In this document: positions 5,915-54,690 of the stretch, in pieces
Layout: each line of letters opens with the position of its first letter
Numbering within the stretch: position 1 is the first letter of the stretch
Assembly: GCA_002311645.1 (NCBI GenBank)
Contig: DBYW01000011.1
Location: forward strand, 10,739-74,738
Length of the DNA: 64,000 nt
Reading direction: 5' to 3'
Origin: Bacteroidales bacterium UBA1176
Lineage (GTDB): Bacteria > Bacteroidota > Bacteroidia > Bacteroidales > WCHB1-69
The notes under the pieces: generated by a model
Databases searched by the model: none
Told to the model about the DNA's origin: nothing
Seen by the model: only the letters and a program-made list of their open reading frames with translations
Position numbers and translations under genes: made by a program

Positions 5915-6898
5915 ATGATGAAAATAGCCTTGGTCGGAGCCACTGGATTAGTTGGTGGCGTTATGCGTAAAGTATTGGAGGAAAGAGGATTTGGAGACTG
6001 CGAACTCATTCCTGCCGCCTCAGCCCGTTCGGTGGGCAAAAAGGTGACATTCGCGGGGAAAGTGTGTAATGTGGTCTCGGTTGAGGAGGCCATCGAACAT
6101 GCTCCAAAGTATGCCATTTTCTCCGCTGGCAGTGGTCCGTCTCTGCAATACGCTCCTTTGTTTGCCCAGAAGGGCACGGTGGTCATCGACAACTCTTCGG
6201 CATGGCGCAGCAACCCCGACATTCCGTTGGTTGTGCCCGAGATCAATGGCGACGTGGTGCGCCCAAACGACTATATCATCGCTAACCCGAATTGCTCGAC
6301 TATCCAGATGGTCATGGCGCTGGCGCCGTTGCACAAACGTTATCGCATCAAGCGCATCGTTGTCTCCACGTATCAATCCATCACGGGTACAGGTATGAAG
6401 GCAGTCAACCAGCTGGCCAAGGAGCGCGCCGGTGAGCCTTGCGACATGGCATATCCATATCAGATAGACATGAATCTGTTCCCGCATGGCGGCACATTTG
6501 AGGAGAACGGCTATACAACAGAGGAGACCAAATTGTTGAATGAGACGCGCAAGATATTGCGAGACAATGAGATTCGCGTGTCTGCCACCGTTGTTCGCGT
6601 TCCTGTGACGGGTGGACACTCCGAGTCTGTCAATGTGGAGTTCTACGAGGATTTCGAACTGTCAGAAGTGTACGATTTGCTGAACAACATGCCTGGTGTT
6701 GTTGTACAAGACAATCCTGCCGAGAATCTCTATCCCATGCCGTTGTTTGCCAAGGACAAGGACGAGGTTTTTGTGGGACGCATCCGCCGCGACTTCTCGC
6801 AGCCCAAGACGCTGAACCTCTGGGTGGTGGCTGACAACCTTCGGAAAGGTGCTGCCACTAATGCCATCCAAATTATGCAGATGTTGCTGAAAAGGTAG
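5915..6898 (+). CDS. asd: Aspartate-semialdehyde dehydrogenase
   Basis: 327 aa. N-terminal Rossmann motif MKIALVGATGLVGG, active-site region IANPNCSTI, and an overall Asd-like sequence. Confidence 0.95.
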   Translation: MMKIALVGATGLVGGVMRKVLEERGFGDCELIPAASARSVGKKVTFAGKVCNVVSVEEAIEHAPKYAIFSAGSGPSLQYAPLFAQKGTVVIDNSSAWRSNPDIPLVVPEINGDVVRPNDYIIANPNCSTIQMVMALAPLHKRYRIKRIVVSTYQSITGTGMKAVNQLAKERAGEPCDMAYPYQIDMNLFPHGGTFEENGYTTEETKLLNETRKILRDNEIRVSATVVRVPVTGGHSESVNVEFYEDFELSEVYDLLNNMPGVVVQDNPAENLYPMPLFAKDKDEVFVGRIRRDFSQPKTLNLWVVADNLRKGAATNAIQIMQMLLKR

Positions 6899-6902
6899 GA
6901 TT

Positions 6903-6943
6903 TTGGCGGTTGGATGTTGGTAGTTGGTAGTTGGTGTTGGGAT
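6903..6943. repeat. Low-complexity TTGG-word array (complement of the CCAAC family)
   Basis: TTGGCGGTTGGATGTTGGTAGTTGGTAGTTGGTGTTGGG, directly after the asd stop codon. Confidence 0.8.
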
Positions 6944-11943: not shown

Positions 11944-11960
11944 ATTAGAGGTTTGTGTTT

Positions 11961-12024
11961 AGTGATCAGTGATTAGTGAACAGTGATCAGTGATCAGTTT
12001 TCAACTATTAACTATTAACTATTA
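11961..12024. repeat. Low-complexity word arrays (GTGATCAGTGA family, then AACTATTA x3)
   Basis: AGTGATCAGTGATTAGTGAACAGTGATCAGTGATCAG followed by TTTTCAACTATTAACTATTAACTATTA. It lies between two same-strand genes. Confidence 0.8.
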
Positions 12025-24505: not shown

Positions 24506-26305
24506 TTATTGTTTCACTACTTTCAGCGTGGATGTCTTCCCATTTTGGAAACGAACCTGCAACAGGTAAAGCCCTGGGGCGAAATCCGACAGATTGACGG
24601 AATGGGAAAGCCCCTCGCAGGGGATGGTCTTGAGCGTTCTGCCCGAGAGGTCCCGGATGGTGACGCTTTCCAACTGTGCCAGCCCGCTCTCAAGGGTGAC
24701 GAGACCCTGCGTGGGGTTGGGAAATACCGTCACGGGCAGTGCTCCCGTGGGGCGCGGATCCTCCACCGACACCCTGTTGTCCAAGACTATTGGGATGCGG
24801 TAAACGGTGTCAAGTTCGGGGACGGTTACCCGAAGCAGGGCTTTGTAGCTGCCGGAGAAATAGCCGTTGATGTTGAAGTTGAGCGCAATGTCGCGGCTCT
24901 GATGGGCGTTGACAGAACCGTTGGGCGTGGCAACCTCCACCCAGCCGACGGGGTTGTGCTGCTCGTCTAAAAGCTCGGTGTTGAAGACAAGGTAGAAGTC
25001 TGACTCGTTGACGAAATGCAGTGTGCGATTGAAAACCGAGGAGCCGTCGTCATACAAGGAGACCCCGATGCTGTCGGGTGTGATGGCAAGCGACGGGTAT
25101 CCCTCGTTGTAGTTGCTCAGGCAGATGTCGTCAATCCATACGCAGTCGCTGCCCGTACTCACAGAGTAGTCCTTGGTGTATTGCCACGTCAGGGTGTGCG
25201 TGCCCGGCTGTACGGCGAACGAGATTTCTGTCCAGTCGTTGGCGCCCGACCAACGCCCTTTTTGCACCCCGTCAATGAAGAAATAGAGCCAGTCGTAGTT
25301 GTTCTCGGTCGAGGTTCTGAAGGCGAACGAGACGTAATGGCTATGGTTGACGGTGATGGGCATATTCACCACGCTGGTGTCGTTGTGGGAGATGGCGCCG
25401 CTGCGCAGACTGTACAGGCCGCTGTGTGCGTTCAGGGAGTCAATGCGCCAGTCTGTCCAGACGGAATCCCCGTACATCGTCGGCGGGTAGATGCCGTCGC
25501 TGAACTCCTCGCAATTGGCGACGCCCACGATGGGGACGATATAGCTGCCGATGGGGACCTGGCTGCCTTGCCGGGCCACCTGGATGCGTACATCGAAGGT
25601 GGTACCGTCCGCAAAAGGCGAACCGGCCTGGATGACGGCCTGGAAGGGGAACGTCTCGTCGCCCCAGAGGGAATCCTTGGTCATCGGGGCGGAGACCACC
25701 TGTATGCCGGGCTGGTCGCACTCCAACGAGAACACCAGGCCCTGCAGCTCGCGGTTGTCGTTGTTGTGGAGCGTGAAGAGCAGGGTGTCGGTCTCGCCGG
25801 CATTCACGAGGCTGTTGTGGTTGCCGTTGTCGCGGATCTCATAGCCCATCACCGAGAGCGAACAGGCCTGCACCCGGTAGGAGCGGTAGGCAATGGCCGA
25901 TTCGATGTCGTTGGTAATCAGGAAGGCGAAGGTGATGACGCGCCCGTCGGGGATGTCGGGGCTGATTTGGCAGCTGGCGCAGTTGTTGAGCGCGTATTGG
26001 TTGCCAGGGGCGATATAGTCGAAACTCTCCGTGCTGTCGTGAAAGGTGATGTAGGGGTCGATGGTGGTGACGTGCAGCTCGCAGTTCTGGAACGGCATCG
26101 TGCCGTTGTTGCGCACCGTCACCGAGAACACGAGCTCGCCGCCCGCTTCCAGCGCGGGACTGGCACTGCCATTGGCCGTGATGAGGACGAACTCCAGGTT
26201 CTCCGTGAAACGTCCTCCGAGTTGCGCCCAGGATGCCTCCGTGCAGAAGAGACACCCTGCCAGGAGGAAGAGGTATTGTAGTATGTGTTTTTTGAAGGAG
26301 AGCAT
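24506..26305 (-). CDS. T9SS type-A cargo protein with adhesin-like modules shared with the two downstream-numbered giant genes
   Basis: CTD VFPNPTQGLVTLE...IRDLSGRTL...APGLYLLQVRFQNGKTSTLKVVKQ. It contains the module SGAISHNDTS...FRTSTENNYDWLYFFIDGVQKGRWSG...CVWIDDICL. Confidence 0.75.
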   Translation of the reverse strand: MLSFKKHILQYLFLLAGCLFCTEASWAQLGGRFTENLEFVLITANGSASPALEAGGELVFSVTVRNNGTMPFQNCELHVTTIDPYITFHDSTESFDYIAPGNQYALNNCASCQISPDIPDGRVITFAFLITNDIESAIAYRSYRVQACSLSVMGYEIRDNGNHNSLVNAGETDTLLFTLHNNDNRELQGLVFSLECDQPGIQVVSAPMTKDSLWGDETFPFQAVIQAGSPFADGTTFDVRIQVARQGSQVPIGSYIVPIVGVANCEEFSDGIYPPTMYGDSVWTDWRIDSLNAHSGLYSLRSGAISHNDTSVVNMPITVNHSHYVSFAFRTSTENNYDWLYFFIDGVQKGRWSGANDWTEISFAVQPGTHTLTWQYTKDYSVSTGSDCVWIDDICLSNYNEGYPSLAITPDSIGVSLYDDGSSVFNRTLHFVNESDFYLVFNTELLDEQHNPVGWVEVATPNGSVNAHQSRDIALNFNINGYFSGSYKALLRVTVPELDTVYRIPIVLDNRVSVEDPRPTGALPVTVFPNPTQGLVTLESGLAQLESVTIRDLSGRTLKTIPCEGLSHSVNLSDFAPGLYLLQVRFQNGKTSTLKVVKQ

Positions 26306-26312
26306 TGCGATA

Positions 26313-26413
26313 AAGAAACTAAGAAATTAAGAAATTAAGAAATTAAGAAATTAAGAAGTTAAGAGGTTGATTATTAATAGTTTAATATTTTAATATTTTA
26401 ATGATTTAATAAC
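26313..26413. repeat. Tandem 8-nt word array (AAGAAATT, about 6 copies) followed by an AT-only word array
   Basis: AAGAAACTAAGAAATTAAGAAATTAAGAAATTAAGAAATTAAGAAGTTAAGAGGTT, then GATTATTAATAGTTTAATATTTTAATATTTTAATGATTTAATAAC. The second part overlaps the last codons of the 26390 gene. Confidence 0.85.
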
Positions 26414-29400
26414 TTTAGTCGTGATGGCGTTTCCGCCTTCCATCCCGATTTTCAGCAGGTAGATGCCGGAGGGCAATCTTGACAAATCGATGTTAGTCTG
26501 GTAGTCGTTCACCGGAACAGTCGCCACCGTGCGGCCGTAAAGATCCGTGACGGTCACTCTCTCGATAAGGGCGTTTTCGTGTTGTACAAAAATTCTGCCG
26601 CTCGTGGGGTTGGGATAGACTTTCAACTCGCGGGACTGTTCCACGGTCGGGATGCCCACACTGCTGACGTGCATCGTGACGGGGACCAGCTGCTCGCCGC
26701 CCGTGTGGCGGATGCGCAGCGTGGCGTGGTGGTCCTCTTCCGCACAGCCGTAACTGTTGAAGTAAAGGACGACCTGCCGTTGTCCGTTCGCGTCAATGAA
26801 GTCGTTGCCCGGCGCACAGGTAACCCAGGTCGGTGTTTGCCCGTCATCGTCTTCCATCACATTGTTGAACAATACAATGCCGTCGAAGGGACTCTCCAAG
26901 GTGACGAGTGCGCTGTCGGTCGTGCTGGTGTGTACCCCTAACGAGACCTCGATGCTGTCAGGCTGGATGTCCAAGTCAAAATCTGCGTCGTTGAATTCCG
27001 TGAGGCAGACGTTGTCAATCCAAACTCTGTGATTGACTTCGTTTACAATGCCAAAATTACCTTTCACGACATTCCAGGTGATGGTGTGGTCACCTGCGGG
27101 GATGGTGAATTGTACTTTAATGCTGTCACCCCAAGATGAGCGTGTCCAAGTGCTTTGCAGTATGTCGTCAATGTATATATAGCAATAATCGTTGTTGATA
27201 AATAATGTTTTCCAGAGATAGAAAGACAACTGTGCGCTTTGTAAGATGTGTACGTCCATCTGGAGTGTTGCGGTGTCGAAATCGTTGAGCGGACCACTGC
27301 ATAGGCGAGTTGAACAGTGGTGGACATAGGTGGCATAGTAGTCGATGCTGTCGAGGATCCAATTCGAATGGATGCCGTCGCCGTGGAATGGCGCAGATAT
27401 CAAGCCGTTCTCAAAATCAAAGCAGAACTTTTCGCTTGTGAGGGTGATGGTCTTGGTTTCCAGAAACATCCCTTTGACGTAAATATCCAAATGTACATTG
27501 AAGGTGGTGCCGTCCACGAAGGCGGAGGACAGGTCAAGTAGGGATGAGATAGAGAAGGGAAGATAGGTAATGGTGTCGAAATGCCAATGGGATGCGGATA
27601 GGTTCACATCTGTCTGCGGGGTGTGCAGATAGATGTCCACGTCATATATGGGCGCCTTGTTGTTCTGCAACGTGAACACAAGGGTGTCGGTCTCATCCGG
27701 ATGAGGGATGATGTCGTTGGCGGACAGGAAAGCGTGCTGTAGCAGTGAGATGTCGTAACGGTGAGCTGTGTAGGTTCGGGAAATGTTTGCCGATGAGATG
27801 TGGTTGTTGAGATGGACGGAGAAGGGAATCGGATAGTTGTCGGGTATGTTGCGATGCACGATGCAGGCGGCGCAGTGACTGAAGACACGGGGCTCGTTGG
27901 GCAGAATATCCCCAAGGGTTTCTGTGCTGTCGAGGAATGTCACAAAGGGGTCGTCGCTGCGGACAAGGATGGTGCTGTTGTGGTACGGTATGGTGTCGGC
28001 ATTGAGCAGGGATATGTCGAAGAACAGCGTGTCGCCGGCATAAATGTAGGGGTCGGACTTGTCGTTCACGATGATGTCGGAGACCAGCACGCGGGAGACG
28101 GCACGAGAGGAGAGACGTATGTCCTGGGTGGCCTGTACGTTGTTGTTGTCGTAGCAGGTGACGGCGAAGGTGGTGTCTTCGAAAGTGTAGTCAACTGTTC
28201 CCGACAGGATGCCATCTGAAGAAAGGGTGAGCCCCTCGGGCAGGGTAGAGGGGGTGAAACGATAGCTGCGATGGTTGATGTCGGAGGCAAAATGCCCGGA
28301 CGCAGAGGTGTGTTGGATGAGTTGGTTGTCGCCCCGCACCAACGCCGACCAGAAACTGTTGCCCATAAAGTTCATTGAACCGTAAAGGAATTCTATGCTC
28401 CCCGTTGAGTGTAAACGGACAGCGAAGTTGACCGTTTGGACGTTGCCGTTGATGTTGGCGTGGAATACCAAAGTGAGATTGTCGCTCGCGACAATCTTGC
28501 GTACCGAGCAATTCGTCAGATCCGACTTGAATGGGCAGATGGAACGAATGGCCATATCCTGCATAGTCGTGGCTTGTGAATTGATGGTGGACAGGAAAGG
28601 CCAGTCGCCGGACTGGTGGTGGAAGGCGATGTAGCCGTCGGCATAGACCACGATTTTGTCATATTCATCACCGTAGTATGTGAAGGTGAATGGCAGTTCA
28701 ACAATGGCATAGCCGTTGTTTACGTTTGAAAGCGGAACATCTTGACCCGATTCCGTCGGGAATGGGACATTGGTTTCTTCAATCTTGTATCTCCTGTTCA
28801 ATTCCCAGTGGTAAGGAGGTTTTCCCCCTGTGGCGTGGAGTGTCTGTTGGTAGTTGGAGTCCACTTCCATATCGGGGAGCAGTGTGTTTTGGATGACGGG
28901 TTTGGAGAAATTGATGGCACGCACCACCGACAGCCAAAGGGTGTCTCCCGGCATAAGGGCAACGTGGGTGGATGGACAAGCTTGTTCAACAGGCGTCCCG
29001 GAGGTGTAGTCCATCAGACTGAAATTTTGCACGACACCTTCGCTGGTATGGTACATATCGGAAAAGGAGGAGGCGATCAGGAAGAACTTGCAGGGCTGTC
29101 CGGGCTCCACAAAGTTGAGCAAGGGGCTGACATCAAGTCCCAGTTCAAGGGTCTTGTTGGATTCTGTGGAATTTCCCCCTTGCATATATTGGCAGCCTCC
29201 TTGTCGGTTGAAAACGTTGAATTCCAATGTGTTTGTGGGACGTGTGGCGTTGGTGTCGTTGGCTATTCCCGCTGTGAGTTTGAGCATCTCGCGGCAAGGA
29301 TGGGTGATGGTGGCCTTGAAGGTGATCTGAGGGAAAACTTCGTCTCTGACTTGCACCACATAGACACACTTGTTCCAGATGCCGCCCTCTGCGGGCAGGG

Positions 29401-30388
29401 AGGCCAACCTGGAATAGGGCAAGTAACAGTAACCGTTGTCACCAAAGCTCTCCCCGTAGGTGTTGCAGATGATGACGGCGCCGATTTCCCAGTCACGAAG
29501 GTCCACAATGCCATCCCCCGTGATATCTATGTTGTTGGTGTACTGGCCGTCATTGTTGTAATCCCAGCGGACATCGTCGTTGTATCCGACAATGGTCATA
29601 GAATGGTTTACGGTTGAACCGAAATAACTCATTATGTGCTTTCCGGCGTCGGGGTTGCCTTGCGGGATAACAGACAGGAAGTTGTTGCCGCGGTAGGTGC
29701 AGTAGAAATTGGCCAACCCGCCGCTGCTTTCCCCGGCCAGATGGTCGTTCAGCCAATGCTTGAGCGTCAACAGACCCTCCTCGTCGTCAATGGGGATGGC
29801 ATACATCTCTGAAATGCGGTTCTTCATTGCGCTGTGATAGGTCTCATAGCCGCTGACCCAACGTCCTGCCCCTCCAGTACTGTACCATCCGCCCCATTCC
29901 GTCACATTGGGTGTGCCCGCCGTACGGATGACCTCCCAAGAATCCAGGAAACTTACACCTTCGTTGGTTCCTTTGTTGCAGAAGTTCCAGGCGAAATGGG
30001 AAGGGTATGCGTAGTTGTGTCCTCCGATGGCATACGGATCTCCACGTTTGCGCATAAGCTCATAACTCAAGGTGTAGCAAATGGTGCTGGCTTGCCCGCA
30101 CTCCAGTGCACTTTGATAGAAGACGGGAATCATCCACGGTTGTAGGCTGTTGTTCACTGAAGAGGGTAATGGTATGTTTCGTTCTGCTTCCGACAATTTT
30201 AGCTGTGATATATTGGAAAATGCCGGGTTGTTGAGCTCCAAGACGGGCATTTGGGCATACAGACTGTCCAAATGTGCTGCCTGTGCGGACATCGCTTCGT
30301 GCTCGGGCACATCTTGCGCACGAAGTCCTCCAATATGGGTCGCCCATATCAAGAACAGGATTGCCGGTATCAGAATGCACTTTTTCAT
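26390..30388 (-). CDS. Giant T9SS cargo: N-terminal papain-like (C1-like) cysteine peptidase domain, repeated adhesin-like modules and a type-A CTD
   Basis: 1332 aa. YQSALECGQAS is the candidate Gln/Cys. VNHSMTIVGYNDD carries the His. CNTYGESFGDNGYCYLPY parallels papain NSWGxxWGxxGY. The CTD is KVYPNPTSGRIFVQ...VTDLYGRTV...PSGIYLLKI. Confidence 0.75.
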   Translation of the reverse strand: MKKCILIPAILFLIWATHIGGLRAQDVPEHEAMSAQAAHLDSLYAQMPVLELNNPAFSNISQLKLSEAERNIPLPSSVNNSLQPWMIPVFYQSALECGQASTICYTLSYELMRKRGDPYAIGGHNYAYPSHFAWNFCNKGTNEGVSFLDSWEVIRTAGTPNVTEWGGWYSTGGAGRWVSGYETYHSAMKNRISEMYAIPIDDEEGLLTLKHWLNDHLAGESSGGLANFYCTYRGNNFLSVIPQGNPDAGKHIMSYFGSTVNHSMTIVGYNDDVRWDYNNDGQYTNNIDITGDGIVDLRDWEIGAVIICNTYGESFGDNGYCYLPYSRLASLPAEGGIWNKCVYVVQVRDEVFPQITFKATITHPCREMLKLTAGIANDTNATRPTNTLEFNVFNRQGGCQYMQGGNSTESNKTLELGLDVSPLLNFVEPGQPCKFFLIASSFSDMYHTSEGVVQNFSLMDYTSGTPVEQACPSTHVALMPGDTLWLSVVRAINFSKPVIQNTLLPDMEVDSNYQQTLHATGGKPPYHWELNRRYKIEETNVPFPTESGQDVPLSNVNNGYAIVELPFTFTYYGDEYDKIVVYADGYIAFHHQSGDWPFLSTINSQATTMQDMAIRSICPFKSDLTNCSVRKIVASDNLTLVFHANINGNVQTVNFAVRLHSTGSIEFLYGSMNFMGNSFWSALVRGDNQLIQHTSASGHFASDINHRSYRFTPSTLPEGLTLSSDGILSGTVDYTFEDTTFAVTCYDNNNVQATQDIRLSSRAVSRVLVSDIIVNDKSDPYIYAGDTLFFDISLLNADTIPYHNSTILVRSDDPFVTFLDSTETLGDILPNEPRVFSHCAACIVHRNIPDNYPIPFSVHLNNHISSANISRTYTAHRYDISLLQHAFLSANDIIPHPDETDTLVFTLQNNKAPIYDVDIYLHTPQTDVNLSASHWHFDTITYLPFSISSLLDLSSAFVDGTTFNVHLDIYVKGMFLETKTITLTSEKFCFDFENGLISAPFHGDGIHSNWILDSIDYYATYVHHCSTRLCSGPLNDFDTATLQMDVHILQSAQLSFYLWKTLFINNDYCYIYIDDILQSTWTRSSWGDSIKVQFTIPAGDHTITWNVVKGNFGIVNEVNHRVWIDNVCLTEFNDADFDLDIQPDSIEVSLGVHTSTTDSALVTLESPFDGIVLFNNVMEDDDGQTPTWVTCAPGNDFIDANGQRQVVLYFNSYGCAEEDHHATLRIRHTGGEQLVPVTMHVSSVGIPTVEQSRELKVYPNPTSGRIFVQHENALIERVTVTDLYGRTVATVPVNDYQTNIDLSRLPSGIYLLKIGMEGGNAITTKVIKSLKY

Positions 30389-30448
30389 AAGGAATGGAAA
30401 TTAGGGGTTACTTCCAAAAGATGCATTTTTTTGCGTTTTGTTACATCT

Positions 30449-33400
30449 TTACTCTTTTATGATTTTGTGCATTATGTGGTTGCCGTCCACCTGTTCTATG
30501 CGTAGCAGATATAGTCCATTGGGCAGCGAGGATAGATCTAAAGTGCCTGTATAGTCGTTTACAGGAATAATTGCCACCGTGCGGCCGTAAAGGTCCGTAA
30601 CAATCACTCTCTCGATAAGGGCGCTTTCGTTTTGTACAAAAACTCTGCCGTTTGTGGGGTTGGGATAGACTCTGACGTTGGCGGGGAATTCCACGGTCGG
30701 GATGCCCACGCTGCTGACGTGCATCGTGACAGTGACCAGCTGCTCGCCGCCCGTGTGGCGGATGCGCAGCGTGGCGTGATGGTCATTCTCCGCGCAGCCG
30801 TAGCTGTTGAAGTAAAGGACGATCTGCCGTTGCCCGTTGGCGTCAATGTAGTCGTTGCCCGGTGCACAGGTGACCCAGATCGGCGTGTGCCCGTCTTCAT
30901 CTTCCAACACATTGTTGAACAAGACGATGCCGCCGAAGGGACTCTCCAAGGTGACGAGCGCGCTGTCGTTTATATGAGCGGAAACGCCCATCGTGATCTC
31001 CACGGTTTCGGGATGAACGTCCAGCTCAAGGGTTGGGTCGTCGAACTCCGCAAAACAGATGTCGTCAATCCACACACAGTCGCTATTGCTGTTGGTGCTG
31101 TAGTCCTTGATGTATTTCCAGGAGGCGACGTGCTCTCCCGGGGCCACGGGATAGTGCACTTGGGTCCACGCGTGTTCACCTGCCCAGCGCCCCTGCTGCA
31201 CACCGTCAATGTAGAAGTAGAGCCAGTCGTACTTGTTCTCCGTCGAGGTGCGGAAGGCGAACATCAGATGCTCGCCCTGCACAGAGTTGAAGGCGATTTG
31301 CACAGCGCTGGTGTCGTTGTGACTGATGGCGCCGCTGCGAAGACTGCCTATGCCCGAGTGCGCCTCCGTGAGGTCGATGACCCAGTCGGCCTGCGAGTTG
31401 CCGCCAGTGAACTGTGCCGGCACGTTTCCGTCCTCAAAGTCAAAGCAGACGGTTTCGCCGAGAATGGTGACGGTCTTGGTGTCCACCAACACGCCATGGA
31501 CGTAGATGTCCACGTAGACGTTGAAAGTGGTGCCGGGCACGTAGTTCGGAGTCACGTAGAGGATGGCCGGCAGTTCAAACGTCGCTTCTGCAGCGATGGC
31601 GTCGAAGTGCCTCGTCGCGACGGGAACCTCCACCTCTGGAAGAGAAGAGTGCAGGCGCAACTCCACGTCTTGGATCTCGCCCTTATTGTTGCGCAATGTT
31701 ACCAAGAGCGTGTCCAACTCGATGGGATGCAGCATGCCGGTGTTGTTGTCGTGGTTGAGGATGGCGTAGTGCAGAAGGGAGAAATCGTAGCTGTGGACGG
31801 CAAAAGCGCGCGTGGTGGTGACGGCGGCGATGTCGTTGGCGATCTCGATGGAGAAGGGAATTTCATGCCCGTCGGGAACGCCTCTTCGCACGACACACGT
31901 GACGCAGTTGTTGAGTGTGTACTCGTTGCTGGAACCGATATAGCCGAAATATTCGGTGCTGTCGATGAACGAGACGAATGGGTCTGTGCTGCGTATATGC
32001 AGGACGCCATTGGGATAGGCCATAGTGTCGGTGTTGAGGACGGAAATGGAGAACCGAATCGTGTCGCCCACAAAGAGATTGGGATTGTCGCTGCCGTTGA
32101 TTTTGAGGTCTGACATCAGAAGACGCGAGGTGTAGAGGCTGGAGATGTGAAATCGTTGGGTTGTCCCCACGTCGTTGTTGTCATAGCAGGTGAGCGAGAA
32201 GGTGGCGTCCTCGAATGCGCGTTCGGACTTGCCTGACAGGGTGCCGGAGGCGGAGAGTGTCAGGCAGTCGGGGAGGATGCTGGGCGTCATCGAGAAGCTG
32301 CGGTGCGCAATGTTGGCGGCAACCTGTCTTGAAACAGGCGTGTGCTGGATCACCTGCTGGTCGCCACGCAAGAGCGCTGACCAGAAATTGCTCCCGGAGA
32401 AAGTCATATCCCCATATTGGAACTCAATGACACCCGAAGCGTGCAATGTGACGGCAAAGTTCACTGACGAGGATGTCTGTCCCGATATCTTGGCAGAGAA
32501 CACCAAGGTGAGCATGTCGTTGCCTGCAATCTTGCGGACACTGCAGTTGGTCAGGTCGGCCTTGAAGGGGCAGATGGAGCGGATGGACATGGTCTGCATA
32601 TCCGAATGTTGCAGGAAGGGCCAGTTGGCGGGCTGGTGGTGGAAGGCGATGTAGCCGTCGGCGTAGACGACAATTTGGTCGTATTCGTCGCCATAGTAGG
32701 GGAACTCGAAAGGCAGGTTGACGATGGCGTAGCCGGTGCCGGTGTTGGAGAGGCTCACAGCTTGTCCCGATTCGGTGGGGTAGGATGAGTTGGTTTCCGA
32801 GATTTCGAACTGCCGGCTCACCTCCCAGCGGTAAGGGGGCTTGCCGCCGGTCGCGGTCAGCGTCTTGCTGTAGGGCACAAAGGCCTCCATATCCGGCAGC
32901 ACCGTGTCCTGGATCTCGGGTTTCGTGAAGTGGATGGCACGCACCACCGACAAGGTGGTCGTCGTGTTGTTGGCGATGGGCACGTTGCCGTTGGGACACA
33001 CCTGCTCATCCTCCACGCCCGAGGTGTAGTCCATCAAACTGAATCCTATAATCTGTCCGTCGCTCGCATTGTCAGGGTCGTCCTCAATTACGTTGAAGAA
33101 GAACTTGCAGGGTGCGTCCGGAGTGGCGTAGTTGAGCAGCGGACTCACGTCAAGTCCCAGTTCGATATCCTTGTTTGACTCGTCGGTGTTGTCGCCCAAC
33201 ATATAGAGGTCGCCGCCCTGGAAGTTGAAGACGCGGAACTCAAGGGTGTGTTCGGGCTGGGTGGCGTTGACGTTGTTGGCGATGCCGGCGGTGAGCTTGA
33301 TCTTGCCGCGCGACGAGTGGCGAATCATTGCCTTGTAGGTGATTTGCGGGAAGACCTCGTCCTTCACCTGCACCACATAGACGCACTTGTTCCAGATGCC

Positions 33401-34372
33401 GCCCTCTGCGGGCAGCGACGCTAACTTGCAGTAGGGCAGGTAGCAGTAGCCGTTGTCGCCAAAAGCATCGCCGAAGGTGTTGCAGAAGATGACGGCGCCG
33501 ATCTCCCAGTCCTTCATGTTCACCACGCCGTCGCCGTTGATGTCAATGTCGTTGGTATATTGCCCGTCGCCGTTGTAGTCCCAGCAGACGGCGTCGTTGT
33601 AGCCGACGATGGTCTGCGAGTGGTTGACGGTGGTGGTGAGGTTGACCACGATGTGCTTACCCGCCTCGGGCGCACCGGGAGGAATCACTGAAAGACCGGA
33701 GTTGCCGTAGTAGGTGCAGTAGTAGTTGGCCAGACCGCCGGAGCTCTCGCCCGCCAGGTGGTCGTAGAGCCAGTGCTTGAGCGTCAGCAGTCCCTCTTCG
33801 TCGTCCACGGGGATGGCGTACATCTCCGAGATGCGGTTCTTCATCGCGCTGTGGTAGGTCTCGTACCCGCTGATCCAGCGGCTGGCGCCCCCCGTACTGA
33901 ACCATCCGCCCCATTCGTTGACATTGGGCGTGCCGGCGGTACGGATTACCTCCCACGTCTCCATAAAGGCTACCCCGCGACTGCTACCACCGTTGCAGAA
34001 GTTCCAGGCGAAGTGCGAGGGGTAGTTGTAGATCATTCCCCATAAAGGGCTCACGTTGCGCCGCCGTGCCAACTCATACGCGAAATTATAGCAGATGCTG
34101 CTGGCCTGGCCGCACTCCAATGCCGCCTGGTAGAATATCGCGGGCATCCACATCCGCTCTGAGTTGTTTACGTAGGAGGGCAGCGGGATGTTGCGCTCGT
34201 CTTGCGACAATTTCAGCCTCGGAACGTTGCTGAACGCGGCCGCATCCAATGCCTCCATGGGGGGCATAGACGCATACAGGCTGTCGATGTCGTATGCTGT
34301 CTGGCCAGGCTGCGCGCCGGCAAGGGTCGCCAACAAGGCCAATATGATCAATAGAGCAGACCTCTTTCTCAT
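30449..34372 (-). CDS. Giant T9SS cargo, tandem paralog of 26390-30388 (papain-like peptidase, adhesin modules, type-A CTD)
   Basis: The true start is MRKRSALLIILALLATLAGAQ at 34372; the track extends to 34549 through non-coding promoter sequence. It has the same ECGQAS / VNHSQTIVGYND / CNTFGDAFGDNGYCYLPY motifs. The CTD is RVYPNPTNGRVFVQ...VTDLYGRTV...PNGLYLLRI. Confidence 0.75.
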   Translation of the reverse strand: MRKRSALLIILALLATLAGAQPGQTAYDIDSLYASMPPMEALDAAAFSNVPRLKLSQDERNIPLPSYVNNSERMWMPAIFYQAALECGQASSICYNFAYELARRRNVSPLWGMIYNYPSHFAWNFCNGGSSRGVAFMETWEVIRTAGTPNVNEWGGWFSTGGASRWISGYETYHSAMKNRISEMYAIPVDDEEGLLTLKHWLYDHLAGESSGGLANYYCTYYGNSGLSVIPPGAPEAGKHIVVNLTTTVNHSQTIVGYNDAVCWDYNGDGQYTNDIDINGDGVVNMKDWEIGAVIFCNTFGDAFGDNGYCYLPYCKLASLPAEGGIWNKCVYVVQVKDEVFPQITYKAMIRHSSRGKIKLTAGIANNVNATQPEHTLEFRVFNFQGGDLYMLGDNTDESNKDIELGLDVSPLLNYATPDAPCKFFFNVIEDDPDNASDGQIIGFSLMDYTSGVEDEQVCPNGNVPIANNTTTTLSVVRAIHFTKPEIQDTVLPDMEAFVPYSKTLTATGGKPPYRWEVSRQFEISETNSSYPTESGQAVSLSNTGTGYAIVNLPFEFPYYGDEYDQIVVYADGYIAFHHQPANWPFLQHSDMQTMSIRSICPFKADLTNCSVRKIAGNDMLTLVFSAKISGQTSSSVNFAVTLHASGVIEFQYGDMTFSGSNFWSALLRGDQQVIQHTPVSRQVAANIAHRSFSMTPSILPDCLTLSASGTLSGKSERAFEDATFSLTCYDNNDVGTTQRFHISSLYTSRLLMSDLKINGSDNPNLFVGDTIRFSISVLNTDTMAYPNGVLHIRSTDPFVSFIDSTEYFGYIGSSNEYTLNNCVTCVVRRGVPDGHEIPFSIEIANDIAAVTTTRAFAVHSYDFSLLHYAILNHDNNTGMLHPIELDTLLVTLRNNKGEIQDVELRLHSSLPEVEVPVATRHFDAIAAEATFELPAILYVTPNYVPGTTFNVYVDIYVHGVLVDTKTVTILGETVCFDFEDGNVPAQFTGGNSQADWVIDLTEAHSGIGSLRSGAISHNDTSAVQIAFNSVQGEHLMFAFRTSTENKYDWLYFYIDGVQQGRWAGEHAWTQVHYPVAPGEHVASWKYIKDYSTNSNSDCVWIDDICFAEFDDPTLELDVHPETVEITMGVSAHINDSALVTLESPFGGIVLFNNVLEDEDGHTPIWVTCAPGNDYIDANGQRQIVLYFNSYGCAENDHHATLRIRHTGGEQLVTVTMHVSSVGIPTVEFPANVRVYPNPTNGRVFVQNESALIERVIVTDLYGRTVAIIPVNDYTGTLDLSSLPNGLYLLRIEQVDGNHIMHKIIKE

Positions 34373-34398
34373 ATTTTTATACTTTACGAAACAAAGCC

Positions 34399-34442
34399 GC
34401 AAATGTACATAAATTTTAAATATGCACTGACATGATGTAATT
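34399..34442 (-). promoter_or_regulatory. Promoter-containing 44-nt repeat, copy A (drives the 30449-34372 gene)
   Basis: GCAAATGTACATAAATTTTAAATATGCACTGACATGATGTAATT. The minus strand carries the -7 box TACATTTG (34400-34407), 28 nt upstream of the start at 34372. It is nearly identical to copy B at 39416-39459. Confidence 0.55.
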
Positions 34443-34522
34443 GTTGTGATTTTCCCGCACACCGTCCCTTCCCAGGGGTTGCAGCGCTCGTTCCCTACCA
34501 ACCCTGGCAGACCTCTGGCCTG

Positions 34523-34610
34523 CCAACCACCAACAACCAAAGACCCCATAGTTCATAGCCATAGTTCAAAGTTCCAACGACCAACCACCAACGACCAACC
34601 ACCAACAACC
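34523..34610. repeat. Low-complexity CCAAC-word array with an embedded CCATAGTTCA duplication
   Basis: CCAACCACCAACAACCAAAG ... CCATAGTTCATAGCCATAGTTCAAAGTTCC ... AACGACCAACCACCAACGACCAACCACCAACAACC. Confidence 0.85.
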
Positions 34611-34630
34611 ATATTTTCTACCGAGCTCTT

Positions 34631-34966
34631 GCCCCTACCGGGGCCATGCGGCATCTTACAAATTGTCTCCCTTTCGCACCGGGGAGGCGCAATGCTTCGT
34701 GGCAAGTGACTCCCGCGGTGCGATGTGTGTCCACCGCGCATCCCAGCACCACACTTGCTACGCTTCGTGTGGTGTTACAAAAAGGAAGGCCTCTTCGAGG
34801 CCGATTCAATTACATTGTCATTTTCCATTCAGACGTGTTCCGAAGGAACACCCTTCTCTGTAACCCCACACGGCCGTGTGGGGTGGAACGACGGCACAGA
34901 AAACCTCTCGCGGCGCGGGAGTCGGCATCCAAGATGCATGAAACTTGCTCGCCGCGAAAGGGAGAC
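34631..34966. ncRNA. Candidate structured RNA (or an inverted-repeat-bounded DNA element); family unknown
   Basis: A perfect 13-bp long-range helix, GTCTCCCTTTCGC (34665-34677) with GCGAAAGGGAGAC (34954-34966). It encloses at least 6 perfect GC-rich hairpins of 5-8 bp, and a further hairpin (34631-34644) lies just outside it. No credible ORF is present. The strand is unresolved. Confidence 0.3.
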
Positions 34967-35020
34967 GTAGGAAAAATGTGTTGTTTATCCCGGCCTGGTG
35001 CCATCATGTATATAACCACC

Positions 35021-35147
35021 TTAATTTTTTAATTTCTTAATTATCAACGTCAAACACCAAACACCAAACACCAATAACCAATGTCCAATAACCAATGTCC
35101 AATAACCAATGTCCAACATCCAATGTCCAATATCCAACGGCCAATAA
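35021..35147. repeat. Low-complexity arrays: TTAATTTCTTAATT words, then CAAACAC x3, then a 14-nt tandem repeat CCAATAACCAATGT (about 3.5 copies)
   Basis: TCAAACACCAAACACCAAACACCAATAACCAATGTCCAATAACCAATGTCCAATAACCAATGTCCAACATCCAATGTCCAATATCCAACGGCCAATAAC. It abuts the MATE stop codon. Confidence 0.85.
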
Positions 35148-36473
35148 CTAAACAAATCTCTTGACGCCCAATTGCATCAGCAATCCTCTCAATACGAGGA
35201 ACAGCAGAAAAGCTATCCATAATCCATTGTTGCCCAATGTGTTGTGCAGGGCGTAGTAGGCAATGAAAAAGGCAGCGGTGGCCGCGAACATCACGTTGCG
35301 CATCGCCTTGGACGCCGTGGCTCCGATGTAGATGCCGTCGTAAATGAAGGCTGCAAATCCCGCAAAAGGTACCATCACCGTCCAGATGATGTACTCCATG
35401 GCCTTGTCAATGACTTCCACTTTGTCGGTGAGGATGCTGAGCAGACCACGTCCGCAGAGGGCATATAGCACGGTAAACACCGCCGCCAGTCCTGTCCCCC
35501 ATAAGAGCAGCAGGCGGATGACCCGGCGCAGGGATTGGTTGTCCTGTGCTCCCACATAGCGTCCCACTAAGGACTCACCGGCATAGGCGAAGCCGTCCAT
35601 GATGTACGACAGCAGTGTGAAAAGCTGCATCAGCAGTGTGTTGGCGGCTAACACCTCATCGCCCATCTCGGCGGAGATGTAGGGGATGAAGGTGAACACG
35701 GCGATGAGGCATAGCGTCCGCAGGAAAATGTCGGCATTGATCTTGAAGAATCGTACCATCTCGTTGATTTTCAGGCTTTCGCGAATGTTGATGTCATGGC
35801 GCATCTCCCCGTATTTGTAGAACCAGATGACTACGGCCATGGCGAGTCCCATGTATTGTGCGATTACGGTGCCCCACGCCACGCCTGCGATGCCGTAGTG
35901 CAGCACAAAGACAAACACCAGGCTGCCGACGATGTTGACGAGATTCAGGATGATGGCAATCCACATGGGGGCCTTGGCGTTCTGCATACCGATGAACCAT
36001 CCCTTGAGGGCATAGAGGCCCAATGTGGCAGGTGCTGCCCAAATGCGGATGTGGAAGTATATCATCGTCAGGTCAAGGGTCTCTTGGCTGGTGTGAATCC
36101 ATCGGCGGCAGAGGAGGTCGATGGGCTGCTGCAGTGCGATGAGCAGGACGGCTGCGCATAGTGCGATGGCCATGCCCCGCACCAAGATGCGCAGGCACTC
36201 CGCGCGGTCCTCCGCCCCATAGGCCTGTGCGGTCAGGCCGCTGGTGCCCATCCGCAGGAATCCGAAGTTCCAGTAGACAAGGTTGAAGACCATGGTGCCC
36301 AATGCAATGGCTGCGATGTGGCTGGCCTGGCCGATGTGTCCCACAATGGCAACGTCCACCATCCCCAATAGGGGCACGGTGATGTTGGTGATGATGCTCG
36401 GCACGGCAAGGCGTAAAATCTGCTTGTTCAAGGCTCTTGTTTTAAAACGGCAAAAGTACAAAAAACGCTCCAT
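35148..36473 (-). CDS. MATE family efflux transporter
   Basis: About 12 TM segments. N-terminal ILRLAVPSIITNITVPLLGMVDVAIVGHIG is typical of MATE (NorM/DinF). The start is probably MERFLY (36473). Confidence 0.9.
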   Translation of the reverse strand: MERFLYFCRFKTRALNKQILRLAVPSIITNITVPLLGMVDVAIVGHIGQASHIAAIALGTMVFNLVYWNFGFLRMGTSGLTAQAYGAEDRAECLRILVRGMAIALCAAVLLIALQQPIDLLCRRWIHTSQETLDLTMIYFHIRIWAAPATLGLYALKGWFIGMQNAKAPMWIAIILNLVNIVGSLVFVFVLHYGIAGVAWGTVIAQYMGLAMAVVIWFYKYGEMRHDINIRESLKINEMVRFFKINADIFLRTLCLIAVFTFIPYISAEMGDEVLAANTLLMQLFTLLSYIMDGFAYAGESLVGRYVGAQDNQSLRRVIRLLLLWGTGLAAVFTVLYALCGRGLLSILTDKVEVIDKAMEYIIWTVMVPFAGFAAFIYDGIYIGATASKAMRNVMFAATAAFFIAYYALHNTLGNNGLWIAFLLFLVLRGLLMQLGVKRFV

Positions 36474-36486
36474 ATCTATTTTTTTG

Positions 36487-36494
36487 TATCTTTG
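36487..36494 (+). promoter_or_regulatory. -7 promoter box for the yqgE/algH-like gene
   Basis: TATCTTTG lies 23 nt upstream of ATG 36517. Confidence 0.45.
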
Positions 36495-36516
36495 CGCTGC
36501 AAAAAAATGCATTTAA

Positions 36517-39355: not shown

Positions 39356-39415
39356 TGTATTGTAAATTTCTGTTATCAAATATGTTGTGAATAGTTCTCT
39401 TGGTAAGAAGAGGCG

Positions 39416-39459
39416 GCAAATGTACATAAATTTTGAATATGCACAGACATGATGTATTT
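39416..39459 (-). promoter_or_regulatory. Promoter-containing 44-nt repeat, copy B (drives the GNAT gene)
   Basis: GCAAATGTACATAAATTTTGAATATGCACAGACATGATGTATTT. The minus-strand -7 box TACATTTG is at 39417-39424. It differs from copy A at 3 positions. Confidence 0.55.
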
Positions 39460-39546
39460 GCCGTGTGAAGTGACGCATGCGTCTCTACAATCACACACGC
39501 AATCGAATGTTTCCCGCCACCGCGCCGGCACGCCCAAATAAAAACA

Positions 39547-54574: not shown

Positions 54575-54690
54575 GAGTGATCAGTGAATTGTGATCAGTG
54601 ATCAGTGAACAGTGAGGAGATGTTTTTAACCGTAAATCGAAAATAAGAGTGATCAGTGATTAGTGAACAGTGAAGAGGGAGAGGATGTTT
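54575..54690. repeat. Duplicated intergenic unit of the GTGATCAGTGA word family
   Basis: Unit 1 is GAGTGATCAGTGAATTGTGATCAGTGATCAGTGAACAGTGAGGAGATGTTTTTAACCG. Unit 2 is GAGTGATCAGTGATTAGTGAACAGTGAAGAGGGAGAGGATGTTTTAATCG. These are the same words as at 11961-11997. Confidence 0.85.

Follow-up and report, generated by a model that had tools for sequence, protein, structure and literature searches.

A multi-hairpin palindrome between two genes of Bacteroidales bacterium UBA1176 and its relatives in uncultured rumen and gut Bacteroidales

The spacer and the anatomy of the palindrome

The DNA analyzed here, called the window, is a 64-kb stretch of the genome of Bacteroidales bacterium UBA1176, and coordinates given without a locus name refer to it. 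In the window, a spacer of 775 nt (34373-35147) separates two minus-strand genes, one for a MatE transporter (35148-36512; Pfam E=2.7e-37) and one for a large secreted protein of 1307 aa with a C-terminal sorting domain of the type IX secretion system (T9SS; 30449-34372). The spacer contains a hairpin-rich element, which had been predicted from the sequence to be a structured RNA or else a stretch of DNA enclosed by inverted repeats, and of which we found homologous copies at unrelated sites in related genomes. As in the original prediction, the element is located between the MatE stop codon and the promoter of the large gene: the gene coordinates agree, and the sole Bacteroidetes-type -7 box in the spacer, TACATTTG at 34400-34407 on the minus strand, lies outside the element and serves the large gene. 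The element thus stands between two co-directional genes, upstream of the second gene's own promoter. It contains only short overlapping open reading frames (ORFs), none of which is credible. The repeats noticed on both sides of it are 7-nt tandem arrays, one at 35043-35148, which begins at the MatE stop codon, and a second at 34523-34615, which shares the TTGG-type unit and the orientation of the first. Both are context and not part of the repeat unit described below, and the first is also a possible target.

The whole element extends over approximately 34606-35014 and is an imperfect palindrome of two inverted arms. Its extent was derived from nhmmer and blastn homology to L083, L091, L011 and others (L-numbers denote related loci, genome bins or metagenome contigs), a search for end repeats, and alignments. 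The limit at 35014, the left boundary on the minus-strand reading, is firm, whereas that at 34606 is approximate because this end is degenerate. The hairpin-dense region had been recognized correctly, but the bounds given for it (34631-34966) are too narrow. The seven local hairpins (34714-34738, 34747-34774, 34788-34802, 34835-34851, 34864-34883, 34925-34937, and 34631-34644) were all found where they had been predicted, as were the hexamers CTCCCG at 34710 and CGGGAG at 34916. With RNA parameters, the region 34620-34980 folds at -159.3 kcal/mol on the plus strand (z -6.05) and -158.7 kcal/mol on the minus strand (z -5.74); with DNA parameters, the minus strand of 34600-35016 folds at -90.3 kcal/mol (z -5.0). 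No shuffled sequence was as low as any of the three observed energies.

Two covariance models were used to describe the parts of the element, R1 for a core module of ~62 nt and R2 for the arm, and copies are read along the strand that carries the strong core module, in the window the minus strand. The conserved part of an arm is 134-144 nt, or ~200 nt including the outer end. From the centre outward, it consists of hairpin 1 (a stem of 6-7 bp with a GGA or GAA triloop), a linker of the AATCTCAATAA type, which pairs with the linker of the other arm, hairpin 2 (an 8-bp stem, CCCCnnAC/GTnnGGGG), a variable spacer, and the core hairpin of ~62 nt, which ends with GCGAAA-GGAG; in complete copies the outer end TATATACCTGATGGCAC follows. 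The core hairpin differs between the arms, one of which has a stem of type A (TCGCACCG/CGGTGCGA) and the other a stem of type B (TCGCGGCG/CGCCGCGA). Arms occur singly or in head-to-head pairs, and the window has a pair.

In the window, the right arm (34664-34806, minus strand; R2, 130.1 bits, E=1.2e-33) carries hairpin 1, the linker, hairpin 2 and a type A core, and the left arm (34832-34967, plus strand; R2, 71.7 bits, E=2.3e-17) carries the same parts with a type B core. Hairpin 1 is GGCCTC-GAA-GAGGCC with a G-N-A triloop on the right arm (34788-34802, minus strand) and GTGTTCC-GAA-GGAACAC on the left arm (34835-34851, plus strand). The right-arm linker (34775-34787, minus strand) is partly complementary to the left-arm linker, CCTTCTCTGTAA (34852-34863, plus strand), and the corresponding pairing between arms is perfect in L083 (TTATTGAGAT/ATCTCAATAA) and L091 (TTAATAAGAT/ATCTTATTAA). 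Hairpin 2 is CACCACAC/GTGTGGTG on the right arm (34747-34774, minus strand), where its loop includes a mini-hairpin, GCGTAGC, and where it covaries with CCCCAGAC/GTCTGGGG of other copies; on the left arm it is ACCCCACACGG/CCGTGTGGGGT (34863-34884, plus strand). The type A core, CATCGCACCGCGGGAGTC..CCCGGTGCGAAAGGGAGAC (34665-34727, minus strand), was matched by R1 with 79.3 bits (E=4e-17) and folds at -27.9 kcal/mol (z -3.2). The type B core, with the stem TCGCGGCG/CGCCGCGA (34905-34966, plus strand), was matched by R1 with 33.4 bits (E=2.4e-5) and folds at -28.4 kcal/mol (z -3.4). The type B stem is compensatory relative to type A, and its signature is common to L083, L091, L100, L007 and L108.

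We also noticed that the hairpin-1 loops, both in the window (34788-34802 and 34835-34851) and in the homologues of all loci, are triloops of the form G(G/A)A, in most cases with a C-G closing pair, and that the apex of hairpin 2 (34757-34763 in the window) is GCGTAGC in the window and L019, ACGCAGT elsewhere, and GCGAAGC in a weak match of L014. Hairpin 1 and the hairpin-2 apex thus have triloops of the c(GNA)g kind, which are exceptionally stable in DNA. The presence of such loops hints that folding may take place in DNA.

The perfect 13-bp inverted repeat was confirmed, with GTCTCCCTTTCGC at 34665-34677 on the plus strand and at 34954-34966 on the minus strand. These are the only two matches to GTCTCCCTTTCGC in the window, even when two mismatches are permitted, and the chance expectation of a perfect inverted repeat of at least 13 bp within 400 nt in a 775-nt spacer is ~0.005 (775 x 400 / 4^13, by our own arithmetic). 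However, the view that this repeat is a helix closing the element did not hold as a conserved structural feature: in ungapped counts, all 13 positions match in the window, but 11 of 13 in L083 and 6 of 13 in L091. Since R1 matches two inverted core modules, the helix consists of their identical 3' tails, GCGAAAGGGAGAC; read on the plus strand, its left half (34665-34677) is the complement of the type A tail and its right half (34954-34966) is the type B tail itself. The 13-bp helix is a by-product of shared core-module tails and is perfect only in the window copy.

An outer terminal inverted repeat, TATATACATGATGGCAC, lies at 34998-35014 on the minus strand, with one mismatch to the family consensus TATATACCTGATGGCAC. 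This 17-mer also bounds L083 (at both ends, with 0 and 2 mismatches), L011c and L091, whereas in the window it is intact at one end only. The opposite end (34606-34663, minus strand), which holds the GCCCC-tacc-GGGGC hairpin (34631-34644), is degenerate and aligns weakly to the family end GCCAT..ATCTGACATC..GTGYCATCAGGTATATA, with ~12 of 23 positions in agreement with the consensus end by eye.

Copies at other sites and their neighbourhoods

The MatE protein places the window in a lineage of uncultured rumen and gut Bacteroidales, in which the best genome-bin relatives are at most 80% identical. When the spacer was searched against 80 related loci, three homologous stretches were found within 13 kb of the yak-omasum bin JAGCGA01 (L011) and one in its sister bin JAGCFD01 (L010), all sharing with the window the ~62-nt hairpin module CATCGCACCGCGGGAGTC...CCCGGTGCGAAA-GGAG. 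An exact-pattern scan of metagenome contigs gave six true family loci, which represent five sites (L083, the same as L101; L085; L091; L095; and L100) with unrelated flanks. Model R2 recovers all of the arms together with distant members in a sheep-rumen bin (JAFXSR01, L019), a red-deer bin (L048), a horse bin (L007), and L108 (ERZ27234161), a closer relative of the window. In total, 12 further, unrelated intergenic sites, in related genome bins and in metagenome contigs, carry homologous arms, either singly or in pairs. The original prediction had named a multi-copy mobile repeat as the outcome that speaks against its RNA reading, and copies do lie at unrelated loci of several related genomes.

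The copies are ~150-440 nt long, their arms are 57-91% identical, and they vary by the loss of whole modules. Doublets occur in the window, L083, L091, L011a and L019, the last being a palindromic copy with a different core, and singlets in L085, L011c, L108, L048 and L011b. L085 and L011c are single A arms, L108 is a single B arm within a capsule locus, L048 retains hairpins 1 and 2 only, L011b and L010 consist of the core and the outer end only, in L100 an A arm precedes a B core, and L007 has a decayed B arm. The long copies are large imperfect palindromes, and each element also matches itself on the opposite strand. Inside the long copy of L011 (5340-5450), a stretch of ~30 nt (TCGCGTCGCCATCCTGTTTCGTCTCGGAG) is present twice as a direct repeat, and this duplication takes the place of most of the left arm.

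The neighbours of the copies are unrelated (htpG/rplM-rpsI-rpsB, ftcD, capsule genes, secreted proteins, and MatE), and the copies have both orientations relative to genes, at sites between tandem, divergent and convergent genes. The ends of several copies read TATA|TACCTGATGG...CCATCAGGTA|TATA, where the TA or TATA is inseparable from the repeat itself. Members downstream of MatE are found in three lineages with consistent orientation, namely both arms in the window, the left arm in L007, and the right end in L010 and L011; the window and L007 have a few diagnostic bases in common. Two pattern scans of viral contigs gave no family copies, and phage and plasmid records gave no match.

Presence of the element differs between close relatives. 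In L011 the site holds 461 nt, made up of a heptamer array and an element, against 104 nt of unrelated sequence in L010, and the flanks of the two are 89-92% identical. The closest relative found, L106, whose neighbouring protein is 91% identical, has the same gene order as the window (GNAT, Big_5, DUF179, MatE, large protein). Its spacer from the MatE stop codon to the large gene is nevertheless only 59 nt, without the element, against 775 nt in the window, and similarity resumes at the -7 box (TATGTTTG vs TACATTTG), inside this short spacer. As L106 has the large gene 59 nt from MatE without the element, the neighbouring gene for the secreted protein does not appear, from this comparison of gene arrangements, to need the element for its expression. 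In the same comparison (L106 7440-7565 vs window 34373-35215), the C-terminus of the L106 MatE protein was seen to be different and 12 codons longer, with the indel breakpoint within the 3' end of MatE.

In another sample of the same species, L001 (ENA ERZ1772556 NODE_731), the MatE protein is identical and the downstream nucleotide identity is 98%. This contig breaks off exactly where the 13-bp inverted repeat has its outer edge, at window ~34968, which is probably an assembly break due to the repeat.

Such a contig end, and perfect 13-bp inverted repeats 276 bp apart upstream of a gene for a large secreted or surface protein, could also be expected of an invertible segment, that is, a phase-variation switch in which a site-specific recombinase acts on the 13-bp repeats and controls the surface-protein gene. 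We consider this very improbable, since no -7 box (TAnnTTTG) occurs on either strand of 34600-35016 and the promoter of the gene is outside, and since the 13-bp repeats belong, as its tails, to a module that is dispersed, and do not match perfectly elsewhere in the family. Moreover, no recombinase was found among the five neighbouring proteins scanned, copies also occur where no regulated gene adjoins, and L106 lacks the element.

Some features of the neighbourhood were observed in passing. Tandem arrays of 7-8-nt units start directly at the upstream gene's stop codon, or a few bases from it, at window 6894-6940, 11955-12024, 26313-26411, 35043-35148 and 54576-54615, the exception being 34523-34615, and arrays after the MatE stop codon are also present in L005, L007, L010/L011 and L014. 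Many units include a stop codon (AGTGATC, GAGTTAA, GGTAGTT), so that three copies put stops in all three frames. We know of no described function of such stop-adjacent arrays. The elements are often embedded in heptamer or octamer arrays, as in the window (34523-34615 and 35043-35148), L108 (2060-2600), L011 (5095-5165 and 7290-7345), L100, and L019 (10520-10575), and by our own count ~6 of 11 element sites are array-adjacent. The flanking arrays of the window share both their TTGG-type unit and its orientation and look like one split array, and the L108 element has AGACnnn units on either side. These arrays may be a preferred landing site of the elements.

The large gene belongs to a conserved cluster (window 24506-34372, and L107, L108 and L111) of one or two proteins of ~1300 aa and a 599-aa protein with a T9SS sorting domain. 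In related loci an MBOAT gene joins this cluster, and its upstream neighbour differs among relatives (MatE, YebC, NusG or DUF6970). A block of ~50 nt that contains the -7 box TACATTTG and also bears short inverted repeats (ACATCATGT) is 92% identical at window 34396-34443 and 39413-39460, where it precedes the large T9SS-sorted protein gene and a GNAT acetyltransferase gene, respectively; it may be a shared promoter or operator.

Conservation of pairing and the nature of the family

Pairing was evaluated in a model-guided alignment of 20 distinct arms, with 24 stem pairs and 500 shuffles. Standard pairs occupy 97.9% of the cells, compared with 83% in the shuffles, and changes on both sides are present in 17 of the 24 pairs; none of the 500 shuffles reached the observed values. 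These figures are generous, the alignment having been fitted to the model and the cells not being independent events, but the trend is nonetheless plain. In controls in which the partner was slid, 35-55% of the cells were paired. All six stem pairs of hairpin 1 have compensatory changes across the arms, and by our own count at least eight distinct stems with perfect pairing exist for this hairpin alone. Among the homologous copies, the local hairpins are kept by compensatory substitutions. The loops and the linker are also better conserved than the spacers. Some selection acts at the level of structure, whether in DNA or in RNA.

One explanation of such selection is that the copies are paralogous genes or modules of a structured non-coding RNA family, with the helices formed in RNA and the conserved loops binding a protein or another RNA. 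The strong compensatory changes in all three hairpins, the conservation of the loops and linker, the hairpins that remain intact at arm identities of 57-91%, and the member kept downstream of MatE in three lineages are what such a family might show. However, the design is palindromic and both strands of the element fold equally well, no conserved promoter or terminator was found for the copies, and their orientation to genes is mixed, with two sites in divergent promoter regions. Furthermore, copies are truncated at module boundaries, and the element is absent in the closest relative, L106. With the evidence on the strand and from Rfam given below, we regard this explanation as rather unlikely.

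Two possible G-U extensions had been taken as weakly favouring a plus-sense RNA. In most copies, the strand complementary to the reading direction of the core module folds better, but this energy difference vanishes without G-U pairs and tracks the G+T content. Wobble pairs are few and are on opposite strands in the two arms. As the difference depends on G-U pairs and the wobbles lie on opposite strands, no RNA strand was assigned.

A scan with the covariance models of Rfam 15, by which the element might have been assigned to a known family, gave no match in the window at the gathering thresholds. In a permissive scan, all matches in the spacer had E above 1, and those in L010 and L011 were at chance level only. 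The raiA-hairpin RNA (RF03059), a candidate with 14.8 bits against a gathering score of 43.7 (E=7.4), was at chance level and was dropped; it gave no match in the four copies of the L010 and L011 loci.

A further possibility is that the repeat has been co-opted in cis, in which case the paired central hairpins would stabilize 3' ends between the MatE and secreted-protein genes, or form a bidirectional terminator or insulator there. The location between co-directional genes and upstream of the promoter of the downstream gene would suit this role, and both hairpin-1 copies of the window are followed by a pyrimidine- or T-rich tail on their own strand. Indeed, the hairpin and T-rich tail described as an intrinsic terminator of the minus strand are present; however, the arrangement is not conserved, as such tails are specific to the window and TAATCTCAATAA follows the homologous hairpin in other copies. 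In addition, two terminator-like sites were found against a shuffle mean of 0.9, which is within expectation, and a spacer of 59 nt suffices in L106. Co-option of this kind thus seems improbable.

Of the alternatives of the original prediction, then, the DNA element similar to miniature inverted-repeat transposable elements (MITEs) is favoured by the results, and the unique RNA gene and the invertible segment are not. Copies at unrelated loci, in both orientations, with outer inverted-repeat ends and with presence or absence in relatives, favour a repeat like a MITE or like a REPIN, a doublet of repetitive extragenic palindromes (REPs). We therefore regard the region, with a probability of roughly 60%, as one copy of a dispersed non-coding REPIN- or MITE-like repeat family of uncultured rumen and gut Bacteroidales, of which the hairpins are under selection. 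The family would have spread as DNA, with the hairpins as the selected parts. These would most likely be recognized in folded single-stranded or cruciform DNA by an enzyme acting in trans, for example a REP-associated transposase of the Y1/HUH type, or else the outer inverted repeats might be bound by a DDE-family (cut-and-paste) transposase. Effects on neighbouring transcripts, through stabilizing or terminating hairpins, would be secondary. In Bacteroidetes, TnpA_REP genes of subclass 2.6 are reported to be bordered by secondary structures of an atypical kind that occur repeatedly in the genome (PMC6006769), and this subclass would be the most attractive candidate partner.

Several observations weigh against a mobile DNA repeat of this kind. 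No ORF with an HUH...Y motif was found by regular expression in six-frame translations of the ~1.2 Mb examined, and in the same ~1.2 Mb the end sequence (at most two mismatches) occurred only at element ends, with no longer autonomous element having the same ends. The 64-kb window holds a single copy, as blastn, nhmmer, R1 and R2 detected nothing beyond its two arms. No clean empty site or target-site duplication was readable in L010 vs L011 or in L106 vs the window, and an exact look-up of the neighbouring protein for a clean empty site found nothing; because both "empty" sites are larger, unalignable indels, deletion is as possible as insertion. The core module is without the GTAG or CGTC tags of classical REPs. 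The copies are old, with arms 57-91% identical, yet their hairpins are intact, unlike the decay of selfish elements, and thus there may be a function for the host or at the RNA level. Likewise, the consistent orientation of the members downstream of MatE in three lineages may reflect long vertical persistence and not repeated insertion, and this hint makes a functional role, for RNA or host, possible.

A bolder and more doubtful proposal is that the family is an undescribed, ancient class of REPIN-like replicator with three-hairpin arms of ~140-200 nt and a partner enzyme, or else a new class of multi-copy structured RNA. In such a replicator, two of the three hairpins would have c(GNA)g-type triloops, and the arms would be kept by selection, would persist vertically, and would reside preferentially within 7-nt arrays that start at stop codons. 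The partner enzyme would act on single-stranded DNA, as might the Bacteroidetes TnpA_REP of subclass 2.6.

As a member of a dispersed repeat family, the locus is no longer a candidate for a new RNA or a phase switch, and the repeat would account for contigs that break off here. In Bacteroidales, hardly any repeat families of the REP/REPIN type have been described. The large multi-hairpin arms, their clear compensatory evolution and the apparent affinity for heptamer arrays next to stop codons would give a handle on recognition, be it of single-stranded DNA hairpins or of end repeats, and the family would also inform how long such repeats persist in uncultured gut and rumen lineages. Models R1 and R2 are directly usable for a census.

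Comparison with known systems

Our search of the literature on MITEs and REPs of Bacteroidales found only papers on MITEs of Porphyromonas gingivalis. Among these, BrickBuilt is described as a MITE containing a minisatellite (PMC4596501). By that description, with which alone our family is compared, both are non-autonomous Bacteroidales repeats associated with short tandem repeats, but the tandem repeat is internal in BrickBuilt, whereas the 7-nt arrays flank the element here. Among RNAs, the core module has a local resemblance to the raiA-hairpin RNA (RF03059), CACCG..GGUGC.AAAGGGA, with the chance-level score given above. The motif GGGGWSAS of TIRYT, a tyrosine transposase associated with terminal inverted repeats (PMC3733652), was also considered, and by eye it did not fit the GGGG-containing stems.

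The classical REP is a short imperfect palindrome, 20-40 nt in length, at the foot of which GTAG or CGTC is conserved (PMC3733652). Like REPs, REPINs and bacterial interspersed mosaic elements (BIMEs), the family described here is extragenic and has hairpin modules both as singlets and as inverted doublets able to form a long hairpin. Its organization is mosaic and clustered, as in L100 and L011, the stems are kept while the sequences diverge, and long vertical persistence is possible. In contrast to REPs and REPINs, however, the arms are ~140-200 nt long with three hairpins each, instead of a single palindrome of 20-40 nt. The core module is ~62 nt, and no GTAG or CGTC is conserved beside any stem in the alignments. 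Moreover, outer inverted repeats flanked by TA are present, and no gene for a REP-associated tyrosine transposase (RAYT) was found in the ~1.2 Mb examined.

With MITEs, the family has in common terminal inverted repeats, several dispersed copies in one genome (L011), and a small, non-coding sequence. The Correia element of Neisseria and the enterobacterial repetitive intergenic consensus (ERIC) are MITEs that are imperfect palindromes. Our family resembles them in a size range of 150-450 nt, in being non-coding and able to fold back, in the occurrence of deletion derivatives, in terminal inverted repeats starting with TATA, and in intergenic sites in both orientations. It differs in that no target-site duplication was demonstrated for the copies found here and no parent insertion sequence is known for them. 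It also differs in its internal hairpins, which are compensatorily conserved, whereas transposition of the DDE family does not require such conservation. The family thus falls outside the definition of classical REPs and, in part, within that of MITEs.

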